Source: Scenedesmus sp. PABB004
Lineage: Eukaryota
NCBI GenBank assembly: GCA_014905635.1
Contig: JABVCE010000021.1
Span: 372,001 to 436,000, forward strand
Direction: 5' to 3'
DNA length: 64,000 bases
Part shown: positions 1 through 25,384 of the stretch, piece by piece
Layout of the letters: each line of letters begins with the position of its first letter
Position numbering within the stretch: the stretch's first letter is position 1
Translations under genes and position numbers: made by a program
The notes under the pieces: generated by a model
The model's database searches: none
The model's input: only the letters and a program-made list of their open reading frames with translations
What the model was told of the DNA's origin: nothing

Positions 1-1810
1 TGTCCTTCACGCCGCCGGTGCCAGAGACCTACGCCGAGCTCGTGGCGCTCGTGGGCGGCCGGCCGGCGGAGCAGCTGGCGCTCGCGATCAAGCGCGTGCG
101 CAGCTTCAACGCCGCCGCGCTCGCGGCCGACAACAAGCGCAAGCTGCAGGCGCGACCCGCGTCGCGCGTCCGGCGCCGCGCCGCACGTCCGTCTCCGCCG
201 CGCGTCGCCGCTCACCGCTGCGCCGGCGCCGCCGCGGCCGCCGGCATTGCCGCCAGGTCTTCTACGGCCTGCTGGTGCAGCACTTTGCGGCGCTCGCCGG
301 CGAGCGCCCGACGCCGGCGGCGCACCTCGACGCGCTCACGGTCGCGCTGCTGTCGCTGACGCCGGAGGTGCCGTTTTACGCCGCGACCGTCGCGCGCACG
401 CGGCTCGAGCGCCTGCACGACCGCCTTGCCGCCGCGCTGTCCGACCCGCTGGCGGCGGGGCCGCTGCTCGGCTGGCCCGGGCCGCGCGGCGTCGCGCAGC
501 TGCGCCTCTTCGCTGTGCTCTTCCCCACGAGCGACAAGCGGCACCCCGTGACGACGCCGCTCGCGCTGCTGCTGGGCAAGTGCCTCGCGCAGTGCCCCGT
601 GGCGCGGCCGTACCACGCCGCGCTGGGGCTGCTGCTCGCCGGCATGGCGCTGCACAACGCGGCCGCCGCGCCGCGCTTCGTGCCCGAGGCCAACGCCTTT
701 GTCGCGGCGGCGCTGCGCGCGTTTGTGCCCGCGCCGCCGCCCGGCGGCAAGGCCGCGCCGGCCGCACGCGGCGGCGCCGAGCGCGACGCGGGCGCGGGCC
801 TGTTCGCGCCGGGCGTGCTCGCGCTCAGCTGCTGCGGCGCCGGCGCCGGCAGCGCCGCGGGCGGCGGCAAGCGCAGGAAGCAGCAGCAGCTGGGCGGCGG
901 CGGCGAGCAGCAGGCGCTGCCGACGCTCAACCTGCATCGCCTGCTCTCCAGCGAGCCGGACGCCGAGGAGCTCAGCAGCGACGCGTTCAAGCTGCAGCTG
1001 CTGGGCTGCGCGGTCGCGACCGCGACCCGCATCGCCGAGCTCAGCGGCGGCGTTGGCGACGCCGCGCCCGAGGTGCTCACGCCGCTGGCGGCGGCCGCCG
1101 CGGCGGCGGCGGGCGTGTGCGGGCTGCCGCCCGCGGCGGCCGCCGCGCTCGCCGCGCTGCGCGCGCGGCTGGCGGCCGCGGCCGACGCCGTGGCGGCGGC
1201 GCGCGCGCCGATGGTGCAATCGCACAGGTGGGGCGCGGCGCCGGCGCGCCCCGCCCCGCCCGCCTGCCTGCCTGCCCCGGCCACACGCACGCACGCGCGC
1301 ACGCGCGCACTCACGCCCCGCTCACCCACCAACACACCAACCCGCCCGCCCGCCCTCGCGCGCAGGGTCAAGCTCGTGGCGCCGCGTGAGTTCAACCCGC
1401 GGTATGAGGCGGACTTCAGCGCGCACGCCGACTACGACCCCGACCGCACGCGCGCGGCGGCGCGCAAGCTGCAGCGCCAGCTCGTCAAGGAGCGGCGCGG
1501 CGCGATGCGCGAGCTGCGGCGCGACGGCGCCTTCATGGCCGCGGTGCGGCGCCGCGGCGCGGCGCGGCGCGGCAGCACGGCGCGCGGCGCGCGGCCCGGC
1601 GCGGCGCCTCGGCGGCGGCGGCGCCGCTGCTCACGCGCCGCCGGCGCCGCCGCCACCGGCTTGCAGGAGCGCGACGCCGAGAAGGCGGCGGTCAACGCGG
1701 AGCGGCTCGCGAGCGAGCGCGCGTTCTACAGCGAGCTGCAGGTGCAGGAGGCGGACGCGAAGAGCGGCGGCCAGCGCGGCATGAACCCGCACCGCAAGAA
1801 GAAGAAGTGA
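1..1810 (+). CDS. NOP14: Nucleolar protein 14 (NOP14-like), 3' part; spliced, 5' end outside window
   Basis: Spliced translation gives IKRVRSFNAAALAADNKRKLQ|VFYGLLVQHF, LFPTSDKRHPVTTP, RFVPEA, FNPRYEADF..DYDPDRTRA..KERRGAMRELRRD, all typical Nop14 C-terminal motifs. Ends HRKKKK-TGA at 1810. Confidence 0.9.
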   Translation, partial: VLHAAGARDLRRARGARGRPAGGAAGARDQARAQLQRRRARGRQQAQAAGATRVARPAPRRTSVSAARRRSPLRRRRRGRRHCRQVFYGLLVQHFAALAGERPTPAAHLDALTVALLSLTPEVPFYAATVARTRLERLHDRLAAALSDPLAAGPLLGWPGPRGVAQLRLFAVLFPTSDKRHPVTTPLALLLGKCLAQCPVARPYHAALGLLLAGMALHNAAAAPRFVPEANAFVAAALRAFVPAPPPGGKAAPAARGGAERDAGAGLFAPGVLALSCCGAGAGSAAGGGKRRKQQQLGGGGEQQALPTLNLHRLLSSEPDAEELSSDAFKLQLLGCAVATATRIAELSGGVGDAAPEVLTPLAAAAAAAAGVCGLPPAAAAALAALRARLAAAADAVAAARAPMVQSHRWGAAPARPAPPACLPAPATRTHARTRALTPRSPTNTPTRPPALARRVKLVAPREFNPRYEADFSAHADYDPDRTRAAARKLQRQLVKERRGAMRELRRDGAFMAAVRRRGAARRGSTARGARPGAAPRRRRRRCSRAAGAAATGLQERDAEKAAVNAERLASERAFYSELQVQEADAKSGGQRGMNPHRKKKK

Positions 1811-2514: not shown

Positions 2515-4888
2515 ATGCGATGCGTGCAGCAGGCAGGGGCGGGCCGCGCGGCGCGGCAGCGCTGCGCGGCGGCGCCGCAGCACGCGGCGCTGCGGCGGCC
2601 CGCCGCGCGCCAGCTGGCGCGGCCAGCGGCGGCGCTGGAGAGTGCCGGGCGTTGCAGAGCAGACGTCAGTGCAGGCAGCAGGGCGGGCGTCGCCCGTGGT
2701 AGCAGCAGCAGGTGCAGCGACAGCAGGAGCAGCAGCAGCAGCGGCAGCAGCGGCTGCGGCAGCAGCGCGGCGCAGCGGCGCCGGCTGCGAGCGCCGCCGT
2801 GCGGCGCCTGGGGCCGGCCGGGCGGCGGCAGCGGCGCGCCGCCGGGCGACCCCTGGGCGTCGCCGCCGGGCGCGGCGGGGGCCGGCGGCGCGGCCGCGCC
2901 GCCGGCCGGCACGGAGCAGCCCGGCGGCGGCGCGCCGGGCGCGCTGGACAGCTACGACCCCTGGGACGACGCGCGGTCGCCCGACGGCCCGCGGGCGGCG
3001 CGCCGGCGTACGAGGCGACCGACTGGGGCTGGGACGGCGCCGGGCAGGACTGGGACCCCGCCGCGGGGCTCGCGCCGGAGCAGCTGGCCGACCTGGAGCG
3101 CGACTACCAGGAGCAGCTCGATCGCCGCAGGCGCGCCGGGGCGGGGCGGCCGGGAGAATTCAGCGCGCGCGACGCAGGGAGGGGGGGAGCGCCTCCAGGG
3201 GGAGGGCGGGAGGGCGGGGGGCAGGCGGCGCGCGGCGCGCGGCGCCGCAGCCGGCGCCGCTGCCAACGCCGCTGCCGCTGCCGCGCAGGGGGCTGGAGAA
3301 CCCGCCGCGCGACAAGTGGATCACGCCGCTGCTGGACTGGCAGTCCATCTACGGCGCGTTTGACCCCGACCAGTCGCGCACGGAGGACACGATGGCCGAC
3401 GAGGCGCTCACAAACAAGGAGGAGAGCCGGTGGGTGTGGGTGGGTGGGGGAGGGGGGGGAGGGGGAGGGGTCGCGCAGGAGGGACGCGCGCGGCGCGGCG
3501 GCCGGGCGGCGCGCCGCGGCGCCGACGCTCACGGCCGGCCGCCGCCGCCGCCGCCGCTGCGGCGCCGCAGCGAGGCGCTCGCGTTTGCGGGGCGGCTGGT
3601 CGTAATCCCCCTCATCACCGGCGCGCTCATCAGCCGCGCCATCACCGACCCCGTGCTCTCCTTCAGCCTGCAGGCGCGCCCGCCGCGCCACGGGCCCGCC
3701 CGCGCCGCCGGCGCCGCCGCGCAGCGGGGCCCTGCTAAACCCCGCCTGCGTCCCCCCCCCCCCCCCACACCCCCACCCCCACCCACCCACCCATTCGCAG
3801 AACAACCCCGACGCGTTCAGCATGACGACGCGGCAGAAGATTGAGGGCGCGTCCGCGGTGCACCTGGAGGAGACGCGCGTGAAGATGATGGTCGCCATCG
3901 GCCAGGCGCCGCCGCTCGACGACGCGGGCATGCTCGCGCACCTGCACGAGTACGCGCGCGAGGTGAGCGAGAAGGACGCCCCCCGGCGCGGCGCGCGGCG
4001 CGGGAGAGCGGCGCGCCTCGCGCGCCCCGCCCGGCCACGCACCATCGCAGCGCATGACGTGCGGGCACTCCCCCGCCCTTTCCCCCCCCATGCCGCGGCG
4101 CCTGGCCGTCTGCCACACACACGCACACACACACGCACGCGCGCACGCACGCAGGTGCAGGAGGAGGAGCGGAGCAAGAACGAGGCCAACCTCATGACGC
4201 TCGTGAGCGACAGCATCAGCGCGATGGCCTTCTTCGCGCTCTTCGTCCGCGACACGCCCGGCCGCACCGCGCTCTTCTGCACCATCGGCCGCCTCTTCGA
4301 GGGGCTCAGCGACATCGCCAAGGCGCGGGCGCAGCGGCGCGGGCGCAGCAGCGGCGGCGCCCGCCGCGCACCGTCACGCTCGCTGCACACGCTCGCGCAC
4401 TCACGCTGAACGCACGCGCACGCACTGAACATGCACGCGCACGCGCTGAACACGCACGCGCAGGCGGTGATGATCATCCTCGTCGCCGACACGCTGCTGG
4501 GCTACCACTCGGAGGAGGGTGCGTGGGGCACGCCGCCGCGCCCGCCCGCGCACCGCGCAGCGCCCGCGCCGCCACCACGCTCCGTCCGCCGCGCGCTCCA
4601 CCGCATTTTCCCACCACGCACACACACAGCACGCTCAATCACGTGCAGACACACAATCTCAACGCAAGCGCTCTCACGCGCGCCGCCGCCGCCGCCGCAG
4701 GCTGGACGGGGTTCCTGGACCTGCTGCTGGGCCACTACGGCATCGAGGTGGAGGAGGAGAACATCGTTCTCTTCGTGGGCATCATTCCCATCGCGATAGA
4801 CGTGCTTTTCAAGTATTGGATATTCATCGGGCTCAACCGCATCTCGCCCGGCGCCGTCGTGACGATCAAGCAGCTCGACCGCCACTGA
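2515..4888 (+). CDS. Nuclear-encoded CemA/Ycf10-family plastid envelope membrane protein; multi-exon, apparent 1-nt frameshift near 2988
   Basis: Arg/Ser/Ala-rich transit-peptide-like N-terminus. C-terminal exons give LFEGLSDIAK|AVMIILVADTLLGYHSEEG|WTGFLDLLLGHYGI..FVGIIPIAIDVLFKYWIFIGLNRISPGAV, matching the CemA signature (D.F.G.HS..GW...D..FKYWIF..LNR.SP). Confidence 0.85.
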
Positions 4889-4989: not shown

Positions 4990-5028
<39 letters not shown>

Positions 5029-5650
5029 GGTTCACCTCACTGCGTGGCCTGCTGAGCTGCACGCCGTGTGAGTTTCTGTGCTGATCGCTGTGCGGTGCGC
5101 GAGGCAGCCCAGAAACTCACAACCGGCGCAACTCCCGCCAGCGAGCGGCGGCCACACCCCCATCGCGCCCCTGCTGTCCCGGGACACTCCCCGCGTCTCC
5201 CGGCCGCGACGAGCCGGCGTTTGCGGCCGCAGTCGCGCGCGAGGGTCGGGAGCATCGCGACCGCGACCGACACCAGCTCGCGACGCCGCCCCGCCCCGGC
5301 ATGCAATGACAAGCCTCCAGCGCTGCCGGTCAGGAGCTCCCCGCCGCAGCGCAGTGCCGACGCTCCGCTGGCCGGCGGCGGCGGTGAAGCAGCGGCGACG
5401 CGCGCCGCTCCGCGCCGCGCTGCCGTCGGCCGCCGAGCGGCCGCCCAGCCGCTCCGGTCGCTCCACTGGTCGCTCCACCGGTCCACGCATGACGCAGTGC
5501 GGCGACGCGCGCGAGCCGCTGCTGCACCGGGAGCAGCAGCGCACGGAGCGCTCGTCGCCGCCGCCGCCGCCGGAGCCGCCAGCACCGCGGCCGCCGCGGG
5601 CCGACTGGGGCAGCCTGCGGCTGCACAAGGGCGCCAAGGTCTTCCCCGCC
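4935..5650 (+). pseudogene. Diverged, truncated duplicate of the upstream region and exon 1 of the DiT gene (counterpart ~9350-10182)
   Basis: 5306-5650 encodes MTSLQRCRSGAPRRSAVPTLRWP...DAREPLL...ADWGSLRLHKGAKVFPA, nearly the same as 9839-10182. Similarity stops abruptly after KVFPA. Confidence 0.85.
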
Positions 5651-5679
5651 GCGGTGGCCGGCGGCGGCGGTGAAGCAGC

Positions 5680-5897
5680 GGCAGGGCGGGGCGGGCCGGG
5701 CGCGGGGCGCGCGTCGCGCGTCGCGACGCGCGCGAGGTTCGGCTGCTGGCGGCGGCGGCGCCGCCGCCTGGTTCGCCTGGTTCGCCTCACTGCGTGTGGG
5801 CTGAGCCGGTTGAGTTGTTGTGCGCCGCACAGTCCAGTTGGTAATAATCGGCGCCAGGCGGGGCCGCGCCAGCCGTCGCGGGCGCCCGCTGGCAGCG
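5680..5897 (+). repeat. Left copy of a ~210 bp near-identical direct repeat (right copy 9296-9504)
   Basis: ggcagggcggggcgggccggg...gagccggttgagttgttgtgcgccgcacagtccagttggtaataatcgg...ctggcagcg occurs at both sites; the left copy has an extra 9-bp tggttcgcc. Confidence 0.95.
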
Positions 5898-5973
5898 TCG
5901 CTCGGCCGCGACGAGCCGGCGGTTGCGGTCGTGACGATCAAGCAGCTCGACCGCCACTGAGTCATGCCTGACG

Positions 5974-6077
5974 GAAAATTAATTAAATTTTCGGTTCGGT
6001 AGACGGCAGTTGCGCGGTTCGGTAGACGGCAGTTTCGCTGCGCTCGCGCAGCCGCGGTACCGCCGACCGGTCGGCGG
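5974..6077. repeat. AT-rich imperfect palindrome, 20-bp direct repeat pair and 18-bp perfect palindrome
   Basis: gaaaattaattaaattttc (5974-5992); cggttcggtagacggcagtt at 5992-6011 and 6015-6034; ccgccgaccggtcggcgg (6060-6077). Confidence 0.9.
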
Positions 6078-6813
6078 CGACAGCTGCGCGTCGAGGCGCT
6101 CACGCCAGCCCTGCTCGCGCTGGGCGTGCTGCTGCTCAGTTTGCCATGCGGTTAGCAGCAGAGTGCACCGCTCCAGTCCGGGGGCGCGGCGCGGCGGCGG
6201 GCGCGGCGCGCAGACTGGTTTCGCGGCGGCCGCGCACAGCGCGGCGGCGCGCGCACGCTGGCGCGCGGCGGTCAGGCCGCGCGCGCTTTGCGCGCAGAAC
6301 GGTGGCGCGCCGGCCGCCCGCGGCGCGGCGCCGCAGGTTCTGTCGTCCTGTCACAAGGCAGCTGCCCGAGCGCCGTTGCGGCCGCCGGAGGCGCGAGGGG
6401 CCGCCGCACCGCCCACTCGCCCTCGCTCACGTCACGCGCACACCACGGCGCCCGTGCCCGCCCCTCCCAGGGCCGGCGCGCGCGCAGCAGAGGGCGCGCC
6501 GCCGCGAGCGCCGGCGCTCGCCGCCGCCACGCCCGCCTTCCGCGCCGCCCCGCCGGCCACACGCGGCTGATCACGGTGCGCAGAGGCGCCTGGCGCGGCG
6601 CGGTGGGCGGGCGGCGCGGGGCTGCGCGGCGGCGGGCGGTCATCGGCGCTGTCTGCCGCAGCGCGCCGCCGCCCCGGGCCGCCGCGCCGCGCCGCCCACT
6701 TCCCCCTGACGCACTCCCCGCTCCCGATACGCCCACAGGCCCGCCGCGCCCGCCCCTCCCAGGCGCTCCCGCGCGGCGGGGCCTTCAACTCCTGCGCACG
6801 CGCCGCGACCACC

Positions 6814-9094
6814 ATGGCGTCGCGCAGCTCCATCAGCAGCGACAGCGCCAGCAGCGCCGCTGCCAGCAGCAGCGACGACGACGGCGGCGGCGCCTACTAC
6901 GTGTCGCCCGCCAAGCTGCGCGCCACGAGCGCGGTGCGGGGGTTGGGCCCGCGGCGGCGTGCAGGCTGGCAGCGCGCCTGCCGCCGCCAGTCGGCCCAGC
7001 CCCTGACCACACACCCTTCACACCCCTTCCTCTGATGCGCGCGCGCAGGGCGACGGCGGCCCGCGCGCGCGCGCGGCCGGCGGAGGCGCCGGCACCAGCA
7101 GCGCCGCCGGGCCCAGCGGCGACAGCAGCGCCCAGCCGCGCAAGCGCAGCACGCCGGCCTACCTGCGCGACGAGCAGGAGCCCATCCCGCCTGCGGCCCC
7201 GCGCGGCGCGCGCGGCGCCGCGCGCGTGGCGGCCAAGCTCGCCGCGCAGGCGGAGCGCGCGGCGGCGGGCCTGGCGGCGTTCTTCTCCGAGCGCTGGGCG
7301 TACCGCACCGACGTGAGCAGCGATTGCGCGCGCCGCGCGCGGGCGCGCTGCCGTGGCAGCAGGCCCTGCCAGCACGTGCACCCCACGCCCTCCCGCGCGC
7401 GCGCGCGCGCGCGCCCAGAACGGCGAGGTCGCGCTGGTGTACGGCGGGCCGGGGCTTCCCGAGGACGTGCGCGCCAAGGCGCGCGCGCTCATCACGGCGC
7501 TGGGCTACAAGCGCGGGCGCGGCGGCTGGAAGGTGAGGCGCGCGCGCACGCAGGGGCCCTGCGCCGCGGCGATGCGCAGCCCAAAGGCGACGCGCTCCTC
7601 CAGCAGCCTCACCCTCATACACACGTCTGCGCCAACAGGCCGGCAAGGGGCACTTCCACCGCAACACAGACCAGCTGCTGAGGACGCTCGAGGGCCGCCA
7701 GCTGCTGCACCTCGTCAAGCCCATCATCGACGACCTCAAGGCGCAGACCGGCTACATCGGCGCCGACGCTGAGCTGGTGGTGCAAGCGGGCAACCAACAG
7801 CCCGACCACCGCGACACGTTCACCGGCGCCGACTGGTTTGAGCGGGTGAGGCTGCGGCGGCGGCCCGGCGGCGGCGGTGCAGCGCTCCAGCTAGCGTTGC
7901 GCCCACCTCCTGCTCCAACGCCGACTTGCCGCCAACGCGCGCGCGCAGGCTGGCGTCGAGCTGCCGGCGCAGGGCGCGGCCGGCGCGCCCGCGCTGGCGG
8001 CGGCGGCAGGCGCGGCGGGCGCGCCCGCGCTGGCGGCGGCGGCAGGCGCGGCGGGCGCGCCCGCGCTGGCGGCGGCGGCAGGCGCGTCGGGCGCGCCCAT
8101 GCTGGCAGCGGCGGCAGGCGCGGCGGGCGCGGCCGCGCTGGGCGGCGAGGGCGAGCTGCCCAGCTCCTACAAGCTCGAGCGCGTGCCTGGTGGCTTCCGC
8201 ATTCTGCTGGACCTGGAGCCCACCGGGAAGCGCTCCGTGATCTACAAGATCCTGCGCGGCCGCAACCTCCACCAGGTGTGGCGCACGCGCGCGCAGCAAC
8301 GCCGCCTCAGGGGCTTATGCGGGCGCTGCGCAGCCCCCCACCCCCTCTCACTCAAAAGAAAACGGCGCTCCCGCTGGCGCAGGTCAAGAAGATGCGGTGG
8401 GGCATGATCGCGATGAACGCCGCTGCCGCCGGCTCGGGCGGCTGGCGCCACGGCCGCCCCATGCACCACGGCCGCTACGGCGACGGCGGCACGGTGCGCT
8501 GCGCTGCGCTGCGCGCCAGCCGCTGCGCACAGCCGCCGCCGCGCACGCCGCGCGCGCCCACCCCAGGCACCACCTCGCCCATCCGCGCAGATGAGCATCG
8601 ACGTGGCGCTGCCGGTTCTGGCGGGGCCGGAGAAGCAGGGCGGCGTGCCCGGCGCGTCGCTGCAGACCAAGGCCTGGTCCGTCTTCAACCACGGCGGCCA
8701 CGGCGCCTCGCTCAACGACGCGCCGGCCGTGGGCGGGCGGCGCCGCGGCGCGGGCAAGCCGCCGGCTGCAGAGGGCGCGGCTGCACGCGCCGCGGCCGCC
8801 GCCGCCGCGGCCGCCGCCGCCGCCGCCGCGGCGGCCGCCGCCGCGGCGCAGGCCGAGCTGGCCAGCGACGAGGAGGACCACGAGGAGGAGGAGCCGGAGC
8901 AGCACTGCTGGTACTGCGGCACCACCCGCACGCCGCGCTTCCGGCGCGTCGGCCGCCACTGGTGGTGCAACGCCTGCGCCGTCCAGCAGCGCAAGGCCCC
9001 GGCGGCCTTCGACGTCGCGAGCCGCCCCTGGAAGGGGTGCGGCGACGACGGCTGCGCGGGCTGCCTGCACCCGGCGGCGGTGGCGGACAGCTAG
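6814..9094 (+). CDS. Putative 2OG-Fe(II)/AlkB-like dioxygenase domain fused to a C-terminal GATA-like zinc finger (about 7 exons)
   Basis: GT-AG introns at ~6934-7048, 7313-7418, 7533-7638, 7846-7948, 8276-8382 and 8494-8590 join one frame: ..AELVVQAGNQQPDHRD..FRILLDLEPTGKRSVIYK..WGMIAMN..MHHGRYGDGGTMSIDVAL..CWYCGTTRTPRFRRVGRHWWCNAC. The Zn finger is clear; the dioxygenase call rests only on motif order. Confidence 0.6.
7973..8140 (+). repeat. 36-bp coding tandem repeat ([12 protein letters not shown], about 4.5 copies)
   Basis: Unit ggcgcggcgggcgcgcccgcgctggcggcggcggca repeated in frame inside an exon. Confidence 0.9.
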
Positions 9095-9105
9095 GTACCT
9101 AGCTG
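9088..9105. repeat. 18-bp perfect palindrome overlapping the TAG stop codon
   Basis: cagctaggtacctagctg; the stop is at 9092-9094. Confidence 0.95.
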
Positions 9106-9108
9106 CCC

Positions 9109-9228
9109 GCCGCCCGCCGCGCTGCCTGGCCGCCGCCTGTCTGCGCCCGTGCTACCGGTAGCACGGGCGCCCGTGCTACCGGTAGCACGGGCGCAGACAG
9201 GCGGCGGCCAGGCAGCGCGGCGGGCGGC
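9109..9228. repeat. Perfect 120-bp palindrome containing two nested 24-bp palindromes, followed by 20-bp tandem repeats to ~9260
   Basis: Arm 9109-9144, gcccgtgctaccggtagcacgggc twice (9145-9168, 9169-9192), then the reverse-complement arm 9193-9228. Followed by repeats of ggcggccaggcagcgcggcg. Confidence 0.97.
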
Positions 9229-9295
9229 CAGGCAGCGCGGCGGGCGGCCAGGCAGCGTGGGCGGGCGAGAGCGGGCGCCAGGGCAGTGGAGGAGT

Positions 9296-9504
9296 GGCAG
9301 GGCGGGGCGGGCCGGGCGCGGGGCGCGCGTCGCGCGTCGCGACGCGCGCGAGGTTCGGCTGCTGGCGGCGGCGGCGCCGCCGCCTGGTTCGCCTCACTGC
9401 GTGTGGGCTGAGCCGGTTGAGTTGTTGTGCGCCGCACAGTCCAGTTGGTAATAATCGGCGCCAGGCGGGGCCGCGCCAGCCGTCGCGGGCGCCCGCTGGC
9501 AGCG
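9296..9504 (+). repeat. Right copy of the ~210 bp direct repeat (left copy 5680-5897)
   Basis: Base-by-base match to 5680-5897 apart from one 9-bp indel. Confidence 0.95.
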
Positions 9505-9838
9505 GCCAGGGGGAGCTGCACGGTGCTTGCCGGGCGGTCTGCCGCGTCGCAGTAGGTGCAGAGGTCGGCCGGGTTCCCGTGGGATGTGCTGATCGCTGTG
9601 CGCTGCGCGAGGCTGTGCGGGGCACCTGCTGACAGAACCCAGCAGCGGCGGAACGTAACCGCAGCGAGCGGCGGCCGCACGCCAGTCGCAGTCTCCCGCC
9701 TGCCCCGGGACGCTGCCTGCGTCGCTCGGCCGCGACGAGCCGGCGGTTGCGGCCGCAGTCGCGCGCGAGGGTTGCGTCGGGAGCGGGCGGCCCTCGCGAC
9801 GCCAGCCCTCTCGCGACGCCGCCCCGCCCCGGCATGCA

Positions 9839-11782
9839 ATGACAAGCCTCCAGCGCTGCCGGTCAGGAGCTCCCCGCCGCAGCGCAGCGCCGACGCTCCG
9901 CTGGCCGGCGGCGGCGGCGCAGCAGCGGCGCAGCCGGCGCGCGCCGCTCCGCGCCGCGCTGCCGTCGGCCGCCGAGCGGCCGCCCAGCCGCTCCGGTCGG
10001 TCGACCAGTCCGTCAGGCATGACTCAGTCCGGCGACGCGCGCGAGCCGCTGCTGCCGGTGCTGCAGCGGGAGCAGCAGCGCGCGGAGCGCTCGTCGCCGC
10101 CGCCGGAGCCGCCGGAGCCGCGGCCGCCGCCGGCGGACTGGGGCAGCCTGCGGCTGCACAAGGGCGCCAAGGTCTTCCCCGCCACGGCCGCGGTGGGGCT
10201 GGGGCTGTTCCTGCGCTTCGCCGTGCCCACGCCGGACGGCGTCACCGAGCAGGTGCGCGGCCTGCCCCCGCTCACTGGGGGCCTCGCCCGCCCCGGCGCT
10301 CGCCGGCGCGCGCGCTGACCGCCGCCCGCCGACCCCCGCCGCCGCGCAGGGCTGGTCGCTGCTGGCGCTCTTCGCGACGATGGTGTCGGGCCTCGTGTTT
10401 GCGCCGCTGCCGACGGGCGCGTGGGCGCTGCTCGGCGCGGCGGTCGGCGTCGCGGGGCACGTGCTGACGTTTGAGGAGATGTTTGCCGCCAGCAACTCGT
10501 GCATCGTGTGGATGGTCGTCGCGTCCTTCTTCCTCGCAAAGGCGCGTGCGTGTGTGCTGCGTGCACAGCTGCGGCCGGCGCGCGGCGGGCGGCGCCGGCA
10601 GCGCGGCAGCGGCCGGCGGGCGGGGCGGCAGCGCGCGGGTGGCCCCCTTCGCCGCAGCGCGCTGCCCGAGCCCGCCGCCGCCGCCGCGGGCGCCGGCGCG
10701 CAGGGGTTTGAGAAGACCGGCCTCGGCGCACGCATCGCCAACACGCTGCTCACGCGCGTCGGCGGCGGCACGCTCGGCCTCGCGGTCGGCCTCGCGGGCG
10801 CGGAGGCGCTGCTGAGCCCGGTCATGCCGTCGACGACGTCCCGCGCGGCGGGCATCTTCATGCCCGTCATCTCAAGCGTCTCCGCCGCGGCCGGCAGCCT
10901 CCCGGGTGCGCGCCGCTGGACCCGCAGGGCTGCCGCGCGGCGCTGCTAGCTGCAGGCGCGGCGCGGGGCGGCGGCGCTGCGCGTGCCGGCGCGCCGACGC
11001 GGCCGCCGCCGCCGGCGCCCCGCCGTGCAGGGCAGCCAAGCCGGAAGCGCCTCGGCGCGTACCTGACTCAGAGCCAGTTCCAGTCTTCGGTCCACTCCTC
11101 CAACTTTGTGATGACGGCGGCGGCGCAGAACCTGCTGTGCCTGCAGCTCGCGGGCGCCGTCGGCGTCGCGCTGCCCGACCCGTTCGCGCTCTGGCTGACC
11201 GGCTCCTGCGTGCCCGCGGCGCTGGGTGCGCGGCGCCGGCGCGCCCGTAGCACGCGCAGCGCGCGCGGCGGCGCCCCCCTGCCCGCTCACGTCGCTCGCC
11301 CGGGGCCACCCGCCCGCGCGCGGTGGCGCGGGGCCGCCGCAGGCGTCGTGCTGACGCCGTGGCTGCTGTTCAAGCTGTGGCCGCCCGAGGTCACGTCCAC
11401 GCCTGACGCACCCGCGGCGGCGGCGGCGCGGCTGGCTGAGATGGGGCCGCTCTCGGTCGACGAGGCCATCATGGCCGCCACGATGCTCGGCGCGGTCGGC
11501 CTCTGGGTGCGCGCCACGCGAGCGCGCCGCCGCCGCCGCGCGGGGCAGGCCACGCGCGCGCGCACGTACGCACCTGTTGCGGCGGCCCGCCGCCGGGGCC
11601 GACGCGACGCGCGGCGTGCTCCGCGGCGCCGCGCAGGTGTGCGGCGGCTCGCTGGGCATCGAGCCTGTCACGACCGCCCTGCTCGCGCTGGGCGTGCTGC
11701 TGCTCACGGGCGTGCTGTCCTGGAAGGACTGCCTCTCAGAGAACCCGCCCTGGGTGGGCGCGCCGCCGCCGCCCGCGCGCAC

Positions 11783-14306: not shown

Positions 14307-16722
14307 GCGAGCTGCGGCTGCCGCGGCGGGAGCGCCCCGCCGCGTCGGCCTCTGCCTCTGCCTCGGCCGCCTCCTCCGCGTCGGGCGGCGCCGCCCACGC
14401 GCCGGCGCCGCCGCCGTCGTCGCCCTCCGCGCCATGCTGCAGCCAGCGCTGCTGCGCCAGGAACTCAGCGATGAACGAACGCTCGGCGGCGGGCACGCCG
14501 CCGCCGCCGGGCTCGGGCGTGCCGCGGCCGGCAGTGCCACTGCCGGCGGGCGCGGCCGCGGGCGGCGTTGCCGCACGGCCGGCCGGCGGCGGCGACGGCG
14601 GCGGCGCGGGCACGGGGCTGAGCAGCGCGCGGTCGCCGCCGCCGCCGCCGCCGGCAGGCGCGAGCGCGGGCGGCGGCGGCGGTGGCGGCGGGCTGCCGCC
14701 AGCGGGCGTGCCGGCGACCGTGCCCCTGCTGAGCAGCCTGCCGGCGCGACGGGGCGGGGCGCGTGAGCCCTGCGGCGCGGCAGCGCGCGCCGAGCGCAGC
14801 GGCAGCGCCTGGCCCGCGGTGCGGCCGCGCCGGGCGCGCGCGCGGGCGCACCGTTGCTTGCGCTGCACCTCCTGCAGCTCCTTTGCGAGTCGGCCCACCT
14901 CGCTGCCCTCCAGGGCCCGCTCCGCCAGCCACGACGCGGCATAGCCCATGCTGGAGGCGGCACGGCGGGGCAGCGGCGGTGGCGAGTCGGCGTGGCGTGC
15001 GCGGCGGCAGGCCAGCGGGCCGGCGCGGCCGCCAGGCTGCCGGCCGCGCGCGGGCGCGGCGGCGCCGGCCCGGCCCGCACCTGAACAGCACGGCCGCCTG
15101 GTAGCGTGTGAGGAGGCCAAAGAGGCTGCCCACGAAGAGCAGGAGGAGCAGCAGCAGGCCGAGCGCCGCGTCCGCGAGCCAGCAAAGCACGTTCACGAGC
15201 CGCCGCGCGGGCTGCCAGCGCGGCAGGAACGCGAGCAGCAGCCGGCCGACCAGGCGGGCGAGCTCAAACTCAACGTAAAACAGGCGCACCACGAGCGGGC
15301 CCAGCCAGCGCTGCGCGGCGCGCGGCGGGCGCGGCGGCGTTGAGGCGGCGCGGCGGCGCGCGCGCGCGGCCGGGGCAAGGGCGGCGCGGCGCGGCAAAGG
15401 GCGCCGCGGCGCGCGGGGCGCGCCTGGTCCTTGTGGTGGCGGCGGCCCTGGATGGCGAGAAAGACGACCAGCACCACCAGGCCCGCGCCGCCGGCGAGCT
15501 TGGCGCCAAACTTGATGAGCCGCGACATCACCGCGTGCCCCCGCACCGCCTCGAGCCGCGTCGCCTGCGCCCAGAACGCCCACAGCAGCAGCGCCGCCGC
15601 GTTGAGCATGCAGACCAGGAGCACAGACTTCCTGCGAATGGAGAGGCGGTGCGGTGGCGGCGCCGCGCCGCGCGCGTGCGTGGGGCGGCGGCCGCCGCCG
15701 CGGTGCCCGCCGGGCCGAGCGGCGCAGCGCCGCAGCACGCAGCATGCAGCAGCGCGCAGCGCGCTCAGCACGCTCAGCGCCGCACCACCAGGTGTCCAGC
15801 ATTCCCTCCACGGCGTAGCAGAGGATGACGGCCGAGGGGAGCAGGTAGAGCGCGCCGCTCAGCGCGCCCAGCGCGCGCCCGAGCTGCACGCCCGCGTCGT
15901 CGGCGGCCTGCGCGAGCTGCGCCTCGTTCCACTGCCGCCAGAGCAGGCGCCCCGCGCCGGCGGGCTGGTGGCCGCGCAGCCACGCGACAAACTCGCGCCC
16001 CGCCTCCTGCGCGCCGCCGCCGCGGCGCCGTGCGCACGTCAGGGCACGCCGCGGGGGGCTGCGCGCGGCGCTGCGGCCGCGCGGAGCAGCGCCGCGGCCC
16101 GCGGCCGCGCGGCGCGCCTTGTTGCGGTCCCACGAGAAGCCAAAGGGGTTGAACCACGCCGGCGCCATGAGCAGCCCCAGCACCACGAGCACGTAGCTCC
16201 AGACCGCCGCAAAGCCCATCGGCAGGCCCAGCGCGCCCGCGACGACCAGCAGCAGCAGCAGGTGCGCTGCGGCGGCCGCGGCGCGCGCGTGGGCGCGCGT
16301 GGGCGCGCGAGGCGGACGCCGGGCGGCGCGCGGTGGCCGTTGCCCGCCCGCGCCCTGGGCCAGCGCCGCGCGCGTGCCGCGTGCGCCGCCGCGCACCGCC
16401 AAACCACATGTGCGAGCGGGCGTACGCCTGGAAGAGGTCGACGAACGGCGTCGCCGCGAGCTTGTAGCCGCGCCCGGTCGCGCTGTACTTTGCGCCGCCG
16501 TACGCGACGTCCGACGCAAACGCGTGCGCCGTGGTCTGGCCGCGGAAGACGTAGAACAGCAGCGAGCCAGACACGAGCTGGCGCAGCACGTTTTTGAGCG
16601 TTGCGAGCAGGCCGTCCTCCTGGTAGGTGTGCGCGGCGGCGGTCGGGGTTTTGCAACGCAACGCGGTCGGGGTTTTGCAACGCAACGCGGCGGCGGGGCT
16701 ACGGTGCCGCGGGCGCCAGGGC

Positions 16723-16753
<31 letters not shown>

Positions 16754-19700
16754 GGCCGCCTCACCAGCCAGACGGTCGCCACGTACGTGAGCAGCGAGAG
16801 CGAGCCGAGCTGCAGCAGCTGCAGGCCGCCGACGAGGGTGAGCAGGTCGTCCACCACGGCGGCGCTCCCGCCGGCCGGCGCGGCCGCGCGGCGGCTGCTC
16901 GCAAAGAGCGCCAGCAGCAGCACCAGCCACGCGTTGACCAGCAGGCTGTACATCAGCAGTGCTGGGCGGCGAGCGGGCGCGCGGGCGCGCGCGGGCGGTG
17001 AGTGCAGGCGGTGAGAGCGGCGTGGCGCGGCGCGCGCGGCGCGGGGCGTGTGGCGGCCGCGGCGGCGGCGCGTGGCGGCACCGCTGCGCACTGGTGTTGA
17101 TGAAAAAACCGTTGCCTGCAGGGCCCGGCGCGAGGCGACACAGCGCGGCGTTGTTGGCGGCCAGGCCGCGGGCAGGCGGGCGGGCGGTCGGCGTGTGTGC
17201 GCGGTGGGGCGCGCGCGGGGCGCGCGGGCCCGCGGCCGCCGCGGCCCGGCCGGCGGCGCGGCACACCGGTGTGGTACCAGGTGAGGAGGCGCGGCATGCT
17301 GAAGCGCCGCGCGAGGCGCTGCACGTCGCGGCTGATGACCTGCTCGCCGTTGCCGCCCGCGATCTGCAAGGGGTTGCGCGGCCGGGGCGGCGGCGGCCGC
17401 GCGTGGCGCCGCGGAACGGGCGGCGGCGCGCACGGCGCGCGGCGCGGCCCTGGCCGCGCCGCGGCGCAGCGGGCGGACTCGCGCGGGCGCGCCTTGGCCT
17501 CAAAGGTGTTGATCGACTCGAAGCCCATGTCGCGGCCCTTGCCGACGGCGATGTAGTCGACGTACGCCACGCCGCGCCCGCGCAGCATCAGGCCGTACCC
17601 ACCAAACACGTCCTCGCTCACGTGCAGGCCCTTGGTCGCCTGCGGCGGCGGCGGCGCCGCCGGCGGCGGCACGTCGGCAGGCCGGCGGCTGCGGACGCCC
17701 ACGCCTCGACAGAGCCTTGGACTGCGTGTGGCGCAGCGCAGCGCCGCCGCCCGGGCCGCACCTTGCTCACGCCGCCGCTGGTCATCACGAAGAGCTTGTC
17801 CCACACGTCCGGGTGGCCGTAGTGGAAGCGGCAGCCGCCTGCGCAGCACGGCGGCGGGAGCGTGGGCGGAGCAGCGCAGCCCGCTGCCTGCGCAGCGGCC
17901 GCGGCCGGCCGCCTCGCGCAGCAGCCGCCCGGCGGGCGCGCGCCGCACCGGGGTTGTGCATCAGGCGCTGCACCGTCGTGCCGAAGCTGCGCTCCGTGGC
18001 GGCCGCAAACTCGGCGAGCGCGCCGCTGTCCTCGCTGAACACCCACTCCCTGAACCCCACCAGCGCGGGGCCGAGCCGCGCGCCCCGCCCGGCGCCGCCG
18101 CCACAGCGCCAGCGCCGCGGCGGCGCGTCGCGCGGCGCGCTGCGCACGCCCGCGGCGGCGCCGCCGGGGCCATCGAACTCTGCCAGCAGGTTGGGCAGCT
18201 TGAGCGCCTCGGCCAGGTAGGAGTCCTGGTTGCAGTCGATCGTCTGCAGCGCCTCGCCGTGGCAAAAGGGCAGCGCGTGGTTCTGGTTCTCTGGCTTGCC
18301 CTCGCCCAGGATGACGCCGCCGTTGGTCTCGAGGTTCATCGGCAGCCGGATCCTGCAGGCCGGGCCGGGGGCGGGGTCGGCGCTGCGCGGGCCGGGCGAG
18401 AGAGACCGCGCGCGGCGCAGGCGGCCCCCCTGCGCTCCCCCACACGCGCGCGCCCGCCGCGCAGCGCCCGCCGCGCTGTGCGCGGCGCGCACCGGTACTG
18501 CTCGGCCACGCCGCCGGCAGACTCGCTCCAGCGCAGCAGCACGCTGTACTGGCGCAGCAGCTGCGGCCCCGCGCCGGCCTTGGTGCGGAGGCGCGGCCCC
18601 GCGTTCACCGCGCCGCCGCCCGCCTGCGTGGCGCGCGCGCGCCGCCGTCCGCGTTGCCACCCATGCCGCGCCCGCGCCGCGCCCGCGCCGCGCCGCCGCC
18701 GCCCAGGTTGCTGCCCCGCCGGCCGCGCACCTGCACAGCCACCGCGCCCGGCGGCGGGGCGCTGAGGTTTTCGGTGTCTATGTAGGCCAGCGCCAGCGCA
18801 GCAGCGTAGCGCCGCGCGAGCACGGCGCGCACGCAGTGGCTCAGCCAGCGGCGCGGCACGCCGCCGTCATTCTGAAACTCGCCCAGCGCCTGACTGTGCG
18901 AGCGGGCGCGGGCGGGCGCGGCGGGCGCGCGCGGTGCGGGGCGCGGGGCGCGGGCGTGAGCGCGGCGGGCTGCGCGGCTGCCCGCTGCGGGCACGCGCGC
19001 CGCGGCGTGTCAGCCCAGCCGGCAGCGCCCCGCCGCCCGCCCGCCGCCCGTCGCGCCTCGACACGACGTAGCTGAACTTCTGCCTTGCCAGCAGCTGCGC
19101 CGCGCGCTGCACCACCGCCTCCAGCCACGCGCTGCGCTCGCGCGCGTCCACCGCCACGCTGTCGCCGCCGCCGCCGGCCGCCCCCGCAAGCGCGGCCGCC
19201 GCCGCTGTGAGCTCGGCCTTGCGCTGCATCAGCACCAGCTGCTGCAGCGCCTGGCGGGGCGCGGGCGGCGCGCGCGTTGGCGTGGGGGCGCGCGGCGCGG
19301 GCGCACGCGCCGGGCGCCGCGCGCGTGCACGAGCGGCACGTGGTGGCGGCGCCGCCGCCGCCTGGGTTTAAGGGTTTAGGCCGCTGCCGCCGCCTGGGTT
19401 TAAGGTTTTAGGCCGCTGCCGCCGCGCGCACCGAGTGATAGTGCATGATGCCATGGACGGTCCGCTCCAGCAGCTGCCCGCGCATGGACGCCCACACGAG
19501 CAGCTCCTCGCGCCAGCCGTGCAGCACGCCGCCTGCGGGCGGGCGGCCGCGGCGCCGCGCCGCGCGCCGGCGGCCCGGCGTCAGCGCGGCGCGGCCGCCG
19601 CAACGGCGGCGGCGCGGCCCGCCCCCGCTGCGCGCGCGTCGCGCGCCGCCGCGCGCCGCACCGGGCGCAAAGTGCTCGGGCGTGACGTCGCCGGGCTTGG

Positions 19701-22700
19701 CGGGGCAGGCGGGCCCCAGCGTCGCGCGCACGTCTGGCCGCGTGATGACGCGCTGCGCAAAGTTCTTCCACTCGGCCACGTACGTCGCCTGGAGATACTT
19801 GAGCGTCTGCGCGGCAGCGGCCGCGGGTGCGTGGGCGTGTGCGCGCGCCGCAGGCGGGCGGCTGCTGGCCCGGGCGCGGCGCCGCCGCGCGCCGGCGGCC
19901 GGCGGGTCCGGCGCGGCGCGCGCGCCTCGGTGCGCTCGCCGGCGGGCGTGAAGAGGGAGCAGGGGTCGCCCGGGCGCAGGCGCGGGGCGCCCATGTCGGC
20001 GAGCGCGGTGGGCTCGTCCAGGGCGTACAGCACGTCCTCCCCGTAGTGCGGCGTCAGCGTCGTCATGCTGGCGGCGTTATAACGCGCGCAGCGCGCTTAT
20101 GTGAGCCGGCGCTTGAAACGCGCAGCGGGGACGCCGGCGCGGCGCGCGCGCGCGCGTGTGCTTGCAAGCGCCGGCACGGCGGCGCGCCGCACCTGCGCAT
20201 GAGCGCGACCGGCGGCGCGGTCGGCAGCAGCGGGTTGTGCAGGGAGGAGGCGAAGAAGCACAGCACGCGCGCCGCCTCGGGGCTGGCCGGCGCCGCGGCG
20301 CCGCGCGTGAGCGCGAGCATGTCCAGCAGCCAGGCGGCCACCTGCTGCGGCAGCGCCGCCGAGGCGCGCCACGCGTCGGGCCGCGCGCCGCGCGCGCCGC
20401 CGCGCCCGCAGCCGCCTCGCCGAGCGCCTTGGCCGCGCCGCCGCCGGCCACGGCCGCCACGGACTTGAAGGCCTGCTCCAGCAGAAGCTGGCTGTCAATG
20501 TCAGACAGGTCAATGGCCTGCAGCGGTGCAGTGCAGTGCGGCACGGCGGCAGCGCGTCAGCGCGGCTGCGGGGGCGGCGGCGCCGGCGCGGCGGCGCGCG
20601 CGGCGGCGGCGGCGGGTGCGGCGCGGCGCGGCGCGCACCGGCGCGGGGCCGGCGTCGTCGCCGCCCGCGGCGGCGGCGAGCTTGGCGTGCAGGCGCTGCA
20701 GCAGGTCGCGGCAGTCGACGAGCGCGGCCGCGGCGGCCTCCACGGTGCGGCTGCTGGCCACGCGCGGCGGCGCGCCGCCGCACTCGGCCGCCAGCCGCCG
20801 CGCCTCGTCGGTGGGGACGAGCATCAGCTGCGCCAGCTCGTCCTCCTGGAGCAGCCCGAGCGAGGCGAGCAGCCAGGCGAGCAGGTTGAACGCGCGGCAG
20901 ACCGCCTCCTCCTGCGTGAGGCTGCTGATGCCGGCGGCCGCGACCTCGACCGCCGCGCCGGCGACGACAAACCTGCGCGCGGGCCGCAGCACGCGTCCGT
21001 GCCGCGTGAGCCCGGCGCCGCGTGGGCCCGGCGCCGCGCGGCGCGGCGGCGGCGGCGCGGCGGCGCGCGCGCCGTGCCTGGGCGGCAGCAGCCAGGCGCC
21101 CTGCGCCGGCGCGGCGCCGTGGGCGAGCGTCTCGTAGCGCAGCCGGGCCGCCTCGTCGTGGCTCAGGTGGTCGCGCGCGCGCAGGTCGCCCACGACGCTG
21201 TCCCACGCTGCAGCAAAGAGCACCTCTGACGGCGGGCAGCGCGGCACGCAGTCCAGGAGCGGCGGCGCCGCGGCGCGCGCCCCGCCGCCGGCGCCGGCGC
21301 CGGCGCCGCCGACGCTGCTGGCGCGCCGCGACACGGCCGCCGCGGCGGCCGCCTCGGCGGGCACGTGCGCGCTGGCGGGCAGCAGGCGCTGCGCGAGCTT
21401 GCGGCTGAGCCCGGGGAACGCCCAGACCAGGTCGCCGACGCCCCTGCGCGTGCCGGGCGGGGCGGCGTGAGCGGCCCACCTCCGGTTCCCCCCGCCGGCA
21501 CGCGGCGCGGCGCCCCCCGCGCCCGCAGCTGCCGCGCCGCGCGCACTTGACGTGGCCCACGCGGCGGTGCAGGCCGAGCACGGCGGTGCTGTAGAGGGCA
21601 CCCACGAGCTGGAAGATGAGGCCGGTGTCATAAAAGACCAGGAACGCGGCGGCGACCCACATGCTCCACACCAGCAGCACCGCGTCGACCCACGCCCACC
21701 CGCTCGCGGGCGGCAGGCCAGAGTCGAGCGGTGGCGAGAGGCGCGAGAGCAGCGCGCGCGCGGGGCCCTGGCGGCGGGCAGCGGCGGCGGCGGGTTGTGG
21801 CGGCGAGCGCGGGCGAGGCGGGGAGGCGCGCGCCCTCTCTCGTTCTCCATCTGTCTCTGTCTGCCTCGCGCATGCGCGCGCGCGCATGCTGCCCTGCCAG
21901 CCCAGCACACGCACCTGTGCGAGCGGGCGCAGCACGACGAGGAAGTCAAAGAGAAACTTCAGGCACAGCACGACGCCCCACAGCCCGCACGCGGCGGCGT
22001 AGCGGGGCAGGTCGTGGCTGCCCGACAGCGCAGAGTACGGGAAAAAGTGCTCCGCGGAGCGCCTGCGGCGGCGGGCAGGCGGGCGGGCGTGGGGGGTGTG
22101 AGGCACTCGTGCGCCGACGGCGCGGCAGGCGGGCGCTGCCCCGCCCGCCGGCCTGTTGGCCCGCTGGGGCGCCGGCGCGCCGCCCCGGCGCCGGCGAGGC
22201 AGGCGCGCTCACCGAGCCTCCTTGTGGCTGAGGAAGCCCAGCCAGCCCTGCGCGCGCGGCGGGAGCGCCTCCGCGCAGCGCTTGGCGAGCTGGTGCAGCG
22301 CCCACGCCGCGCCGTACGCGGCCGACGCGAGCGCCCAGAGCGGGACGCGGCCGCCGCCCGGCAGCGCCGGCGTGCGGCCGCCGAGCGCGCGGTGCAGCGG
22401 CCAGCTGGGCAGGTGGCTGTCGAGCAGCACCCACACGCAGCCAAACCAGAAGAGCAGCGTGACGCAGTTGTGTGCCGCGAGCGCCGCGCCGCCGTGCACG
22501 GGCGGCGACACGCGCACAAGCGAGCCCTCGCGCTGCCGCCGCGTCTCCCACTGGCGCGCCCACCACGCCGCGGCGCGCGACGCGGGCCCGCGCGCCGCCT
22601 TGGCCGGCGCGCCGCCGCCGGCGAGGTCGCCGCCCGTCTCGGGCGCGGGCGCCTGCACCCGCACCGCGCTCGGCGGCGTGACGAGGTGCAGAATGGTCAG

Positions 22701-25328: not shown

Positions 25329-25384
25329 CGCGGCGGCTGCCCGCTGAGCGGTGTGAGGGCTAGCGCGGCATCGCCGAGTCGCTC

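Follow-up and report, generated by a model that had tools for sequence, protein, structure and literature searches.

A 64,000-nucleotide stretch of DNA from Scenedesmus sp. PABB004, referred to here as the window, was found to carry a seven-exon gene on its plus strand, the predicted product of which ends in a zinc finger that is GATA-like as judged by both sequence matches and a structural model. We consider the chances about even that this is a real nuclear gene whose product, restricted to a narrow lineage, is a regulator that binds DNA through a GATA-type finger and has a core of unassigned fold. An earlier sequence-only reading had instead placed a dioxygenase-like fold in the core, and the evidence bearing on both interpretations is presented below.

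Gene structure and protein composition

The gene lies at 6814..9094 on the plus strand, and its seven exons splice into 1647 nt, corresponding to 548 codons and a TAG stop codon (Table 1). The start ATG of exon 1 is found in an ACCATGG context, and on reading of the sequence no in-frame ATG was seen between the upstream stop codon and position 6814. All six introns follow the GT..CAG pattern and are uniform in length, ranging from 97 to 115 nt. In each of the seven exons, the GC content is highest at the third of the three codon positions (GC3 0.92–0.98), and the phase of this signal runs in the order 0,1,2,0,1,0,1, as required by the exon model, with shifts exactly at the proposed splice sites. 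The low GC2 of exon 4 in a genome of approximately 80% GC fits selection on the protein.

The encoded protein alternates in composition between low-complexity segments, with a fraction of order-promoting residues of 0.10–0.12, and more ordinary segments (0.29–0.34). The non-repetitive core begins near residue 109, inside exon 2, and was delimited as residues 109–400 minus residues 236–302 (~225 residues). The segment left out has a G+A+R+P fraction of 0.82; the low-complexity insert proposed in the sequence-only reading was here identified as an in-frame tandem repeat. All strings quoted in that reading were recovered in the spliced 548-residue protein, the last of them, TMSIDV, crossing the exon 6/7 junction. 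Exon 7 encodes MSIDVALPVL, then a Gly/Ala-rich linker, a run of poly-Ala, an acidic patch, the finger and lastly a Cys/His tail. The core ends in the same exon that carries the finger. These observations establish the seven-exon gene model together with the repeat. The basic patch in exon 2 might conceivably serve as a nuclear localisation signal.

Table 1 Features of the gene and its predicted product, with positions in the window and residue numbers of the spliced protein.
Feature	Position	Strand	Description
Exon 1 (aa 1–40)	6814..6933	+	GC3 0.97; Ser/Ala/Asp/Gly-rich low-complexity N-terminus
Exon 2 (aa 41–128)	7049..7312	+	GC3 0.98; low-complexity
Basic patch PRKRSTP (aa 70–76)	7136..7156	+	Exon 2
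Exon 3 (aa 129–166)	7419..7532	+	GC3 0.97; belongs to core half A
Exon 4 (aa 167–235)	7639..7845	+	Least GC-biased exon, GC2 0.38; AELVVQ and H223-R-D225
AELVVQ (aa 210–215)	7768..7785	+	Exon 4
H223-R-D225	7807..7815	+	Exon 4
Exon 5 (aa 236–344)	7949..8275	+	GC3 0.92; Ala/Gly repeat insert, then FRILLDL and RSVIYK
Tandem repeat, 36 nt × 5.1 copies, in frame	7965..8147	+	91% matches, score 299; 12-aa Ala/Gly-rich unit
FRILLDL (aa 318–324)	8195..8215	+	Exon 5
RSVIYK (aa 330–335)	8231..8248	+	Exon 5
Exon 6 (aa 345–381)	8383..8493	+	GC3 0.97; GMIAMN, W-R-H367-G and M-H372-H373-G
GMIAMN (aa 351–356)	8401..8418	+	Exon 6
W-R-H367-G	8443..8454	+	Exon 6
M-H372-H373-G	8461..8472	+	Exon 6
TMSIDV (aa 381–386)		+	Exons 6 and 7
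Exon 7 (aa 382–548 and TAG at 9092–9094)	8591..9094	+	GC3 0.97
Poly-Ala run	8789..8860	+	Exon 7
Acidic patch DEEDHEEEEPE	8867..8899	+	Exon 7, directly N-terminal to the finger
GATA-like finger C487-x2-C490-x16-C507-x2-C510 (CWYCGTTRTPRFRRVGRHWWCNAC)	8906..8977	+	PDB sequence match, Foldseek, Pfam below cut-off
C-terminal cluster C531-x4-C536-x2-C539-x-H541	9038..9070	+	Pattern only

The C-terminal zinc finger is GATA-like

The CX2CX16CX2C spacing described in the sequence-only reading was confirmed, as was the 16-residue loop, which is one residue shorter than that of the GATA-2 finger. When compared to the sequences of solved structures in the PDB, the finger was most similar to GATA-2 (chain 6zfv_A; 21.7 bits at E = 0.0016, aligned with a single loop gap), followed by five GATA-1 and GATA-3 chains (E 0.011–0.031) and two further GATA chains (E 0.38 and 0.68); every zinc-finger match at E<0.1 was a GATA finger. 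The residues GTTxTPxxRR and CNAC align with the GATA-2 and GATA-1 fingers. The Pfam GATA family (PF00320) gave 12.0 bits (E = 0.17) on the finger and 11.4 bits on a longer frame, under the cut-off of 26.8 bits, and the loop of 16 residues falls outside the CX2C-X17-20-CX2C spacing of this family. A single-sequence AlphaFold model had a mean pLDDT of 65.6, with 77–82 in the finger part, and consisted of a beta-hairpin followed by a helix. Nine of the ten top Foldseek matches of this model in the PDB were GATA DNA-binding domains, at E values of 0.28–1.4 and none ≤0.001; the model superposed on GATA3 and GATA1 with an rmsd of 1.3–1.4 Å over 32–34 columns (38–44% identity). Taken at the level of sequence and model, the finger is GATA-like.

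Whether such a finger would contact DNA is a separate matter. Canonical GATA fingers have an Asn in the CxNC motif and a basic tail following the finger. The present finger has a Tyr in place of this Asn and a weak basic tail, and DNA binding is therefore not assured. Position 12 is occupied by Phe, whereas in the animal GATA factors, according to a preprint, it is always Trp (bioRxiv 10.1101/2022.05.20.492891). The same preprint describes the 16-residue loop as a variant that occurs in EGL-27/RERE-type GATA fingers and has arisen more than once; in Caenorhabditis, the proteins bearing atypical GATA-like fingers of the EGL-27 and CoREST types are chromatin co-regulators and not classical GATA factors (bioRxiv 10.1101/2022.05.20.492891). 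The Phe at position 12 and the co-regulator setting of the atypical fingers, along with the sub-threshold Pfam score and the non-significant fold matches, would suit a degenerate treble-clef module that contacts protein or RNA, or a finger of no relation whose spacing is identical by coincidence, neither of which would bind DNA sequence-specifically; ArfGAP and CONSTANS-like B-box fingers are reported with this same Cys spacing. We regard this alternative as unlikely, yet the best placed of those considered: the PDB matches and the aligned GATA residues described above speak against it, and neither the ArfGAP nor the B-box family appeared in Pfam at E≤10. An assignment to ArfGAP or B-box was accordingly rejected, as GATA alone was found among the finger matches in Pfam and the PDB.

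The additional C-x4-C-x2-C-x-H cluster noted downstream of the finger is present (C531, C536, C539, H541) and could, from its residue pattern, form a putative second small metal site. AlphaFold confidence over this region was low, with means of 48, 46 and 39 for successive 10-residue blocks.

The core and its comparison to dioxygenases

The sequence-only reading had assigned the core to an AlkB/TET-type double-stranded beta-helix (DSBH) from the order of its motifs, with an HxD...H metal site and the usual 2OG-binding Arg missing. On this proposal, the core would be a divergent Fe(II) oxygenase with iron bound by H223, D225 and one of the His residues further on. Without the usual Arg, it might work with some co-substrate in place of 2OG, and the finger would tether the enzyme to specific DNA sites for base modification. 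The residues in question do exist: HxD at 223–225 precedes H367, H372 and H373, after which comes the hydrophobic TMSIDVAL, and the two halves of the core are separated by a low-complexity insert, which is also a feature of TET proteins. They do not rise above chance, however, since 2193 of 5000 shuffles with the composition of the 225-residue core also contained an H-x-[DE]...(40–120 aa)...H skeleton. The strand labels and the "usual Arg position" depend on an assumed DSBH alignment that no tool result backs. In the Fe(II)/2OG oxygenases, the C5 carboxylate of 2OG is anchored by a basic residue, either Arg or Lys. Motif order is the sole basis of the dioxygenase reading and lies at chance level, so the motif argument alone cannot carry the claim. 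The HxD and three later His of the core do stand in a DSBH-compatible order, a point that counts against our preferred explanation.

The core matched no family in Pfam, PHROGs, NCBIfam or the PDB sequences. Searches of the exons against the first three libraries returned no DSBH family at E≤10 on any exon; in Pfam at this threshold, this includes both AlkB (PF13532, 2OG-FeII_Oxy_2) and TET/JBP (PF12851). The latter family was found in none of three genomes and none of 14 control genomes. Among the PDB sequences, exons 3, 4 and 6, together with exon 5 outside its repeat, matched no dioxygenase chain (TET, CMD1 or other) at E≤10, exons 3 and 6 had no Pfam or PDB match, and a frame-0 read-through of 7639–8493 (exon 4, out-of-frame sequence and exon 6) matched no Pfam family. 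Custom profiles were also compared with the spliced core. The AlkB profile, built from 27 bacterial AlkB sequences, scored −1.0 bits, a score reached by 520 of 2000 shuffles; the corresponding values were −1.7 bits and 598 of 2000 for 2OG-FeII_Oxy_3 (PF13640), −0.1 bits and 369 of 2000 for PhyH (PF05721), and −13.1 bits and 1873 of 2000 for the Cupin_8/JmjC-like profile (PF13621), the input of which probably included some wrong frames (lengths 745–756 aa). Local alignment of the core to E. coli AlkB was likewise at chance level (98 of 300 shuffles reached the score). A cross-family control indicated that these profile and sequence tests are blind to a new DSBH family, which leaves room for the proposal, whereas a homologue for testing conservation of the motif residues was not found in the searches made.

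Exon 4 alone, modelled by AlphaFold, was all-helical with a pLDDT of 53.9, which is uninformative because the fragment was isolated and no alignment was used. To look for assembly into a single domain, four chains taken from exons 4 and 6, the non-repeat end of exon 5 and the beginning of exon 7 were co-folded, and gave ipSAE values of 0.00 and 0.00, evidence neither way. Other assignments judged on the sequence itself, namely HRD as a kinase catalytic loop, an HD hydrolase, a P-loop (VALVYGGPG) and PD-(D/E)xK, were rejected as companion motifs were absent and no profile matched.

Precedents for both parts of the oxygenase proposal are found in the literature. CMD1 is a TET homologue that uses vitamin C instead of 2OG (PMC7854593), and AlkB-clade oxygenases are documented in fusion with PHD, AT-hook and SAD/SRA domains, which bind DNA or chromatin (PMC4738411). 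CMD1 nonetheless retains both Arg residues aligned with the 2OG-binding pair of TET, and 2OG is described as being bound by residues that typify the individual subfamily and are not shared by all (PMC7854593). Little can therefore be concluded from a single guessed position that lacks an Arg, and the ascorbate use of CMD1 is not tied to a missing Arg. On present evidence, the sequence comparisons suggest that the core does not belong to any described dioxygenase family, and the tests made gave the dioxygenase reading as such no positive evidence. We judge a divergent AlkB/TET-type oxygenase to be distinctly improbable. The more specific version, in which a highly divergent Fe(II) DSBH oxygenase has gone unseen, has lost its 2OG-anchoring Arg and is directed by the GATA-type finger as a locus-targeted base modifier, perhaps with a non-2OG co-substrate like CMD1, appears very improbable.

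Homologue and transcript searches

No relative of exon 4 was found by shared words among longer proteins or by phmmer among 1.84 billion representative proteins. Searches of metagenome contigs with exons 4 and 7, of viral contigs with exon 7, and of longer proteins with the finger region gave no homologue, and no paralogue was found within the 64-kb window. The ESM Atlas placed exon 4 in clusters without a family, with a recognition value of 1535 and 0.85 as the best score, an uninformative result. The Rfam scan of the whole window gave no matches. A lookup of sequencing runs by sampled words listed no RNA run, and two DNA-type metagenome runs shared fractions of 0.07 and 0.05 of the words. 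In a literature search, none of the 10 titles listed out of 25 matching papers describes a GATA-dioxygenase fusion in algae. The absent homologues are weak evidence against a real gene, since even the conserved neighbour Nop14 had no match above 63% identity at full coverage.

That the locus is no functional gene, its frames and codon bias being decayed or mis-read products of extreme GC content, or that exon 7, which opens with an ATG at 8591, is a separate gene, is highly improbable: although open frames abound in all six frames, with 55 stop-to-stop frames ≥80 aa overlapping 5000–11000, and neither a homologue nor an RNA run was found in the searches above, the codon-position signal, the uniform introns, the low GC2 of exon 4 and a repeat unit that is a multiple of three all argue against it.

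Proposed function and significance

The explanation we prefer is a lineage-restricted GATA-type regulator. The host would be a plastid-bearing, green-alga-like eukaryote, and the gene would be restricted to a narrow lineage. The protein would comprise a disordered Ser/Ala/Gly-rich N-terminus with its basic patch, a non-repetitive core whose two parts are separated by an in-frame, expanded minisatellite, then a linker with poly-Ala and acidic stretches, and a single C-terminal GATA-type C4 zinc finger. This finger would bind DNA like other GATA-type fingers, and the protein would act as a transcription or chromatin regulator, with the acidic patch and the core providing an effector or regulatory part. 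That the protein binds DNA, resides in the nucleus and has a role in regulation is inferred.

As it stands, the protein is another lineage-specific zinc-finger protein from a poorly sampled, extremely GC-rich alga, and the main value lies in annotation, in the form of a clean gene model of seven exons and a GATA-like finger whose 16-residue loop is the rarer length. The protein would gain much in importance should its core turn out to be a dioxygenase. An oxygenase that a finger aims at DNA sites, and from which the canonical 2OG anchor is missing, would add to the precedent set by CMD1 for unusual co-substrates and would suggest targeted base modification in green algae.

Comparison with known systems

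With respect to AlkB, TET/JBP and CMD1, the protein is alike in having an HxD and later His residues with a low-complexity insert between them; neither a profile nor a sequence match to AlkB, Tet_JBP or other DSBH families was obtained. In common with the AlkBH3 and AlkBH5 fusions described in one study (PMC4738411), a nucleic-acid-binding module, here the predicted GATA-like finger, is present in the same polypeptide.

The CX2CX16CX2C spacing is also that of atypical fingers in EGL-27/RERE and in some MED proteins, as described in the preprint cited above (bioRxiv 10.1101/2022.05.20.492891), but these retain Trp at position 12 where Phe is found here. The proteins in question furthermore carry ELM2 and Myb/SANT domains, neither of which was detected by Pfam in the present protein, and a sequence relationship to these fingers was seen only in the generic GATA pattern.

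The closest resemblance is to the GATA domains (PF00320; GATA-1/2/3/4 and AreA), with which the finger shares the four Cys arranged as CX2C...CX2C, the GTTxTPxxRR and CNAC residues, and a hairpin-helix model that superposes on GATA3 and GATA1. It differs from the GATA-2 and GATA-1 fingers in its 16-residue loop, aligned with one gap, and in the Phe replacing Trp at position 12, and from GATA domains in general in standing alone at the very C-terminus with an additional CCCH cluster behind it, and in scoring 12 bits against a cut-off of 26.8.

Gene model and protein layout

GC content is about 73–81% throughout the window (2-kb bins), and long open frames consequently occur in all six reading frames; with 80 aa as the lower limit, six-frame translation gave 55 stop-to-stop frames overlapping positions 5000–11000, so frame length by itself is no evidence of a gene here. 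The seven-exon model, spliced into 1647 nt (548 codons and TAG), is supported by its introns, which are all GT..CAG (115, 106, 106, 103, 107 and 97 nt in order), by GC at the third codon position, which is the highest of the three positions in all seven exons (0.92–0.98 per exon), and by shifts of the high-GC phase (0, 1, 2, 0, 1, 0, 1; 90-nt bins) at the proposed exon boundaries. Over 1.9 kb upstream of the gene, sustained GC periodicity was absent in the same bins. The GC2 of exon 4 is only 0.38, which in this genome fits selection on the encoded protein. The model, predicted from sequence, was taken as sound.

Along the 548-aa protein, low-complexity segments (aa 1–108, 236–302 and 401–480; order-promoting residues 0.10–0.12 by composition) take turns with ordinary-looking ones (aa 109–235, 303–400 and 481–548; 0.29–0.34). 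The sequence-only reading had proposed an AlkB/TET-type dioxygenase core, interrupted by a low-complexity insert and apparently lacking the Arg that binds 2OG, fused to a GATA-like finger, and this observation is borne out in part. All the strings it quoted (AELVVQ, H-R-D, FRILLDL, RSVIYK, GMIAMN, M-H-H-G and TMSIDV) occur in the spliced protein in the order described, the insert is an in-frame tandem repeat, and both the CX2CX16CX2C finger (C487-x2-C490-x16-C507-x2-C510) and a second Cys/His cluster after it (C531-x4-C536-x2-C539-x-H541) are present.

Features of the window
Feature	Position	Strand	Basis or description
Nop14	2-1807	+	domain match
CemA-family protein	3606-4885	+	two frames, E=2.9e-10 and 5.6e-19
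Gene under study, exons	6814-6933, 7049-7312, 7419-7532, 7639-7845, 7949-8275, 8383-8493, 8591-9094	+	splicing
Tandem repeat	7965-8147		36 nt, 5.1 copies
Perfect palindrome	9109-9228		120 nt; two 60-nt arms, 100% complementary, spacer 0
Direct repeat	9143-9190		24 nt x 2
Direct repeat	9203-9262		20 nt x 3
Glucan (callose) synthase	15777-25984	-	family match to 1,3-beta-glucan synthase
Glucan (callose) synthase	36108-40246	+	family match to 1,3-beta-glucan synthase
HNH endonuclease domain, long frame	62083-63999	-	PF14279 E=3e-12, PF01844 E=2.8e-11

Genomic neighbourhood

The genes around it are unremarkable nuclear genes for a eukaryote with plastids; besides those tabulated they include a Na/sulfate symporter, a PHO4 phosphate transporter, a DUF2358 protein and a KAS III-type synthase, and no link to nucleic-acid modification was found among those in the window. 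The CemA frames just upstream seem to be a nuclear gene whose product is a CemA-like envelope protein. The two sets of callose synthase frames, about 10 kb apart on opposite strands, suggest two divergently oriented paralogous genes. An HNH domain is unusual in a nuclear algal gene, and the frame that carries it, at the window's right-hand edge, may belong to a mobile or horizontally acquired element. The palindrome begins 15 nt past the stop codon of the studied gene, with the 24-nt repeat nested in it and the 20-nt repeat extending into its right arm. The palindrome may form a hairpin in the 3'-UTR or may stem from misassembly.

The GATA-like finger

The finger scored 12 bits against the Pfam GATA model, under the threshold of 26.8. 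Its best match among PDB sequences was the GATA-2 finger (6zfv_A, E=0.0016), in an alignment with one single-residue gap, located in the loop, and with the GTTxTPxxRR and CNAC residues aligned; GATA-1 and GATA-3 chains followed (E 0.011–0.031). A single-sequence AlphaFold model of aa 476–548 (mean pLDDT 65.6; 77–82 in the finger) has a hairpin followed by a helix, and superposes on GATA3 and GATA1 with an rmsd of 1.3–1.4 Å at 38–44% identity. A Foldseek comparison of the finger model with the PDB listed 44 matches up to E=10, of which none attained E≤0.001; nine of the best ten were GATA DNA-binding domains (AreA, GATA3, GATA4 and GATA1; E 0.28–1.4). Small domains seldom attain significance in this type of search. 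The finger is predicted, with moderate support, to be GATA-type, in line with the earlier proposal, and may bind DNA. The CX2CX16CX2C spacing is described as common to ArfGAP and B-box fingers; neither family appeared among the Pfam or PDB matches of the finger sequence.

The putative dioxygenase core

The core is the non-repetitive part carrying H223-x-D225 and later His residues. Spliced as aa 109–235 plus 303–440, it was compared with custom profiles from bacterial members of four double-stranded beta-helix (DSBH) families and with 2000 shuffles of itself. The scores were -1.0 bits for AlkB (equalled by 520 shuffles), -1.7 for 2OG-FeII_Oxy_3 (598), -0.1 for PhyH (369) and -13.1 for Cupin_8 (1873). 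The AlkB profile used every fourth of 80 close relatives, leaving out three frames above 450 aa and a single locus taken from an unpublished genome; 4 of 30 loci were removed for 2OG-FeII_Oxy_3, and a few Cupin_8 frames (745–756 aa) look wrong. Local alignment to E. coli AlkB scored 32, equalled by 98 of 300 shuffles. As a control, true members of one DSBH family did no better than noise when scored with another family's profile (medians -4.8 to 2.5 bits). What the tests exclude is therefore that the core belongs to those families, not that it has the DSBH fold. An H-x-[DE] followed by His 40–120 residues later arose in 2193 of 5000 core shuffles, which makes the HxD...H skeleton a weak positive argument for a dioxygenase. 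The 'missing Arg' presupposes an assumed alignment to a DSBH, and the residues binding 2OG are described as subfamily-specific in the paper on CMD1, the Chlamydomonas TET homologue that uses ascorbate (PMC7854593).

Queried exon by exon, neither Pfam (all seven exons) nor PHROGs and NCBIfam (exons 2–4 and 6, the end of exon 5 outside the repeat, and two portions of exon 7) yielded a DSBH family match at E≤10. Among PDB sequences, exons 3, 4, 6 and non-repeat exon 5 matched nothing relevant (best E 0.5–3.9), and TET, CMD1 and AlkB chains were absent. Exon 4 had no relative by shared words, nothing at E≤0.001 with phmmer among 1.84 billion representatives, no match in metagenome contigs and no informative hit in the ESM Atlas; folded as an isolated fragment it reached a pLDDT of 53.9, too low to be informative. 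Co-folding of four exon pieces as separate chains gave ipSAE values of 0.00, which count neither for nor against a single domain. No paralogue of the gene was found within the window. The Nop14 domain, a conserved yardstick, reached only 57–63% identity at best (full coverage) among 5.8 billion protein clusters, indicating that the organism is without a close relative in protein databases. An orphan-like appearance there is what one would expect of a fast-evolving regulator, and the solitude of the gene is thus weak evidence of true novelty.

Overall reading and comparison with known systems

We give about even chances to a GATA-type DNA-binding regulator that is restricted to a narrow lineage and whose core has no assigned fold. 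That the core is a DSBH of any kind is improbable; the dioxygenase fold is hypothetical and without positive evidence from the sequence tests. The full reading, in which a DSBH core would act as a finger-targeted base modifier, is one that we consider very unlikely.

The CX2CX16CX2C pattern is reported from Caenorhabditis, in orthologues of EGL-27 (related to human RERE) and many MED proteins, by a preprint that also argues for repeated changes in GATA loop length (bioRxiv 10.1101/2022.05.20.492891). The studied finger shares the 16-residue loop with these proteins, which by that account is an already documented variant, not a new one, and carries Phe at position 12, where animal GATA factors have Trp according to the same source. 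Fusions of AlkBH3 and AlkBH5 oxygenases to PHD, AT-hook or SAD/SRA modules, and of GATA fingers to base-modifying methyltransferases, are both described in PMC4738411. A targeted base modifier, if real, would therefore be a new variant of such documented fusions and no new kind of system.
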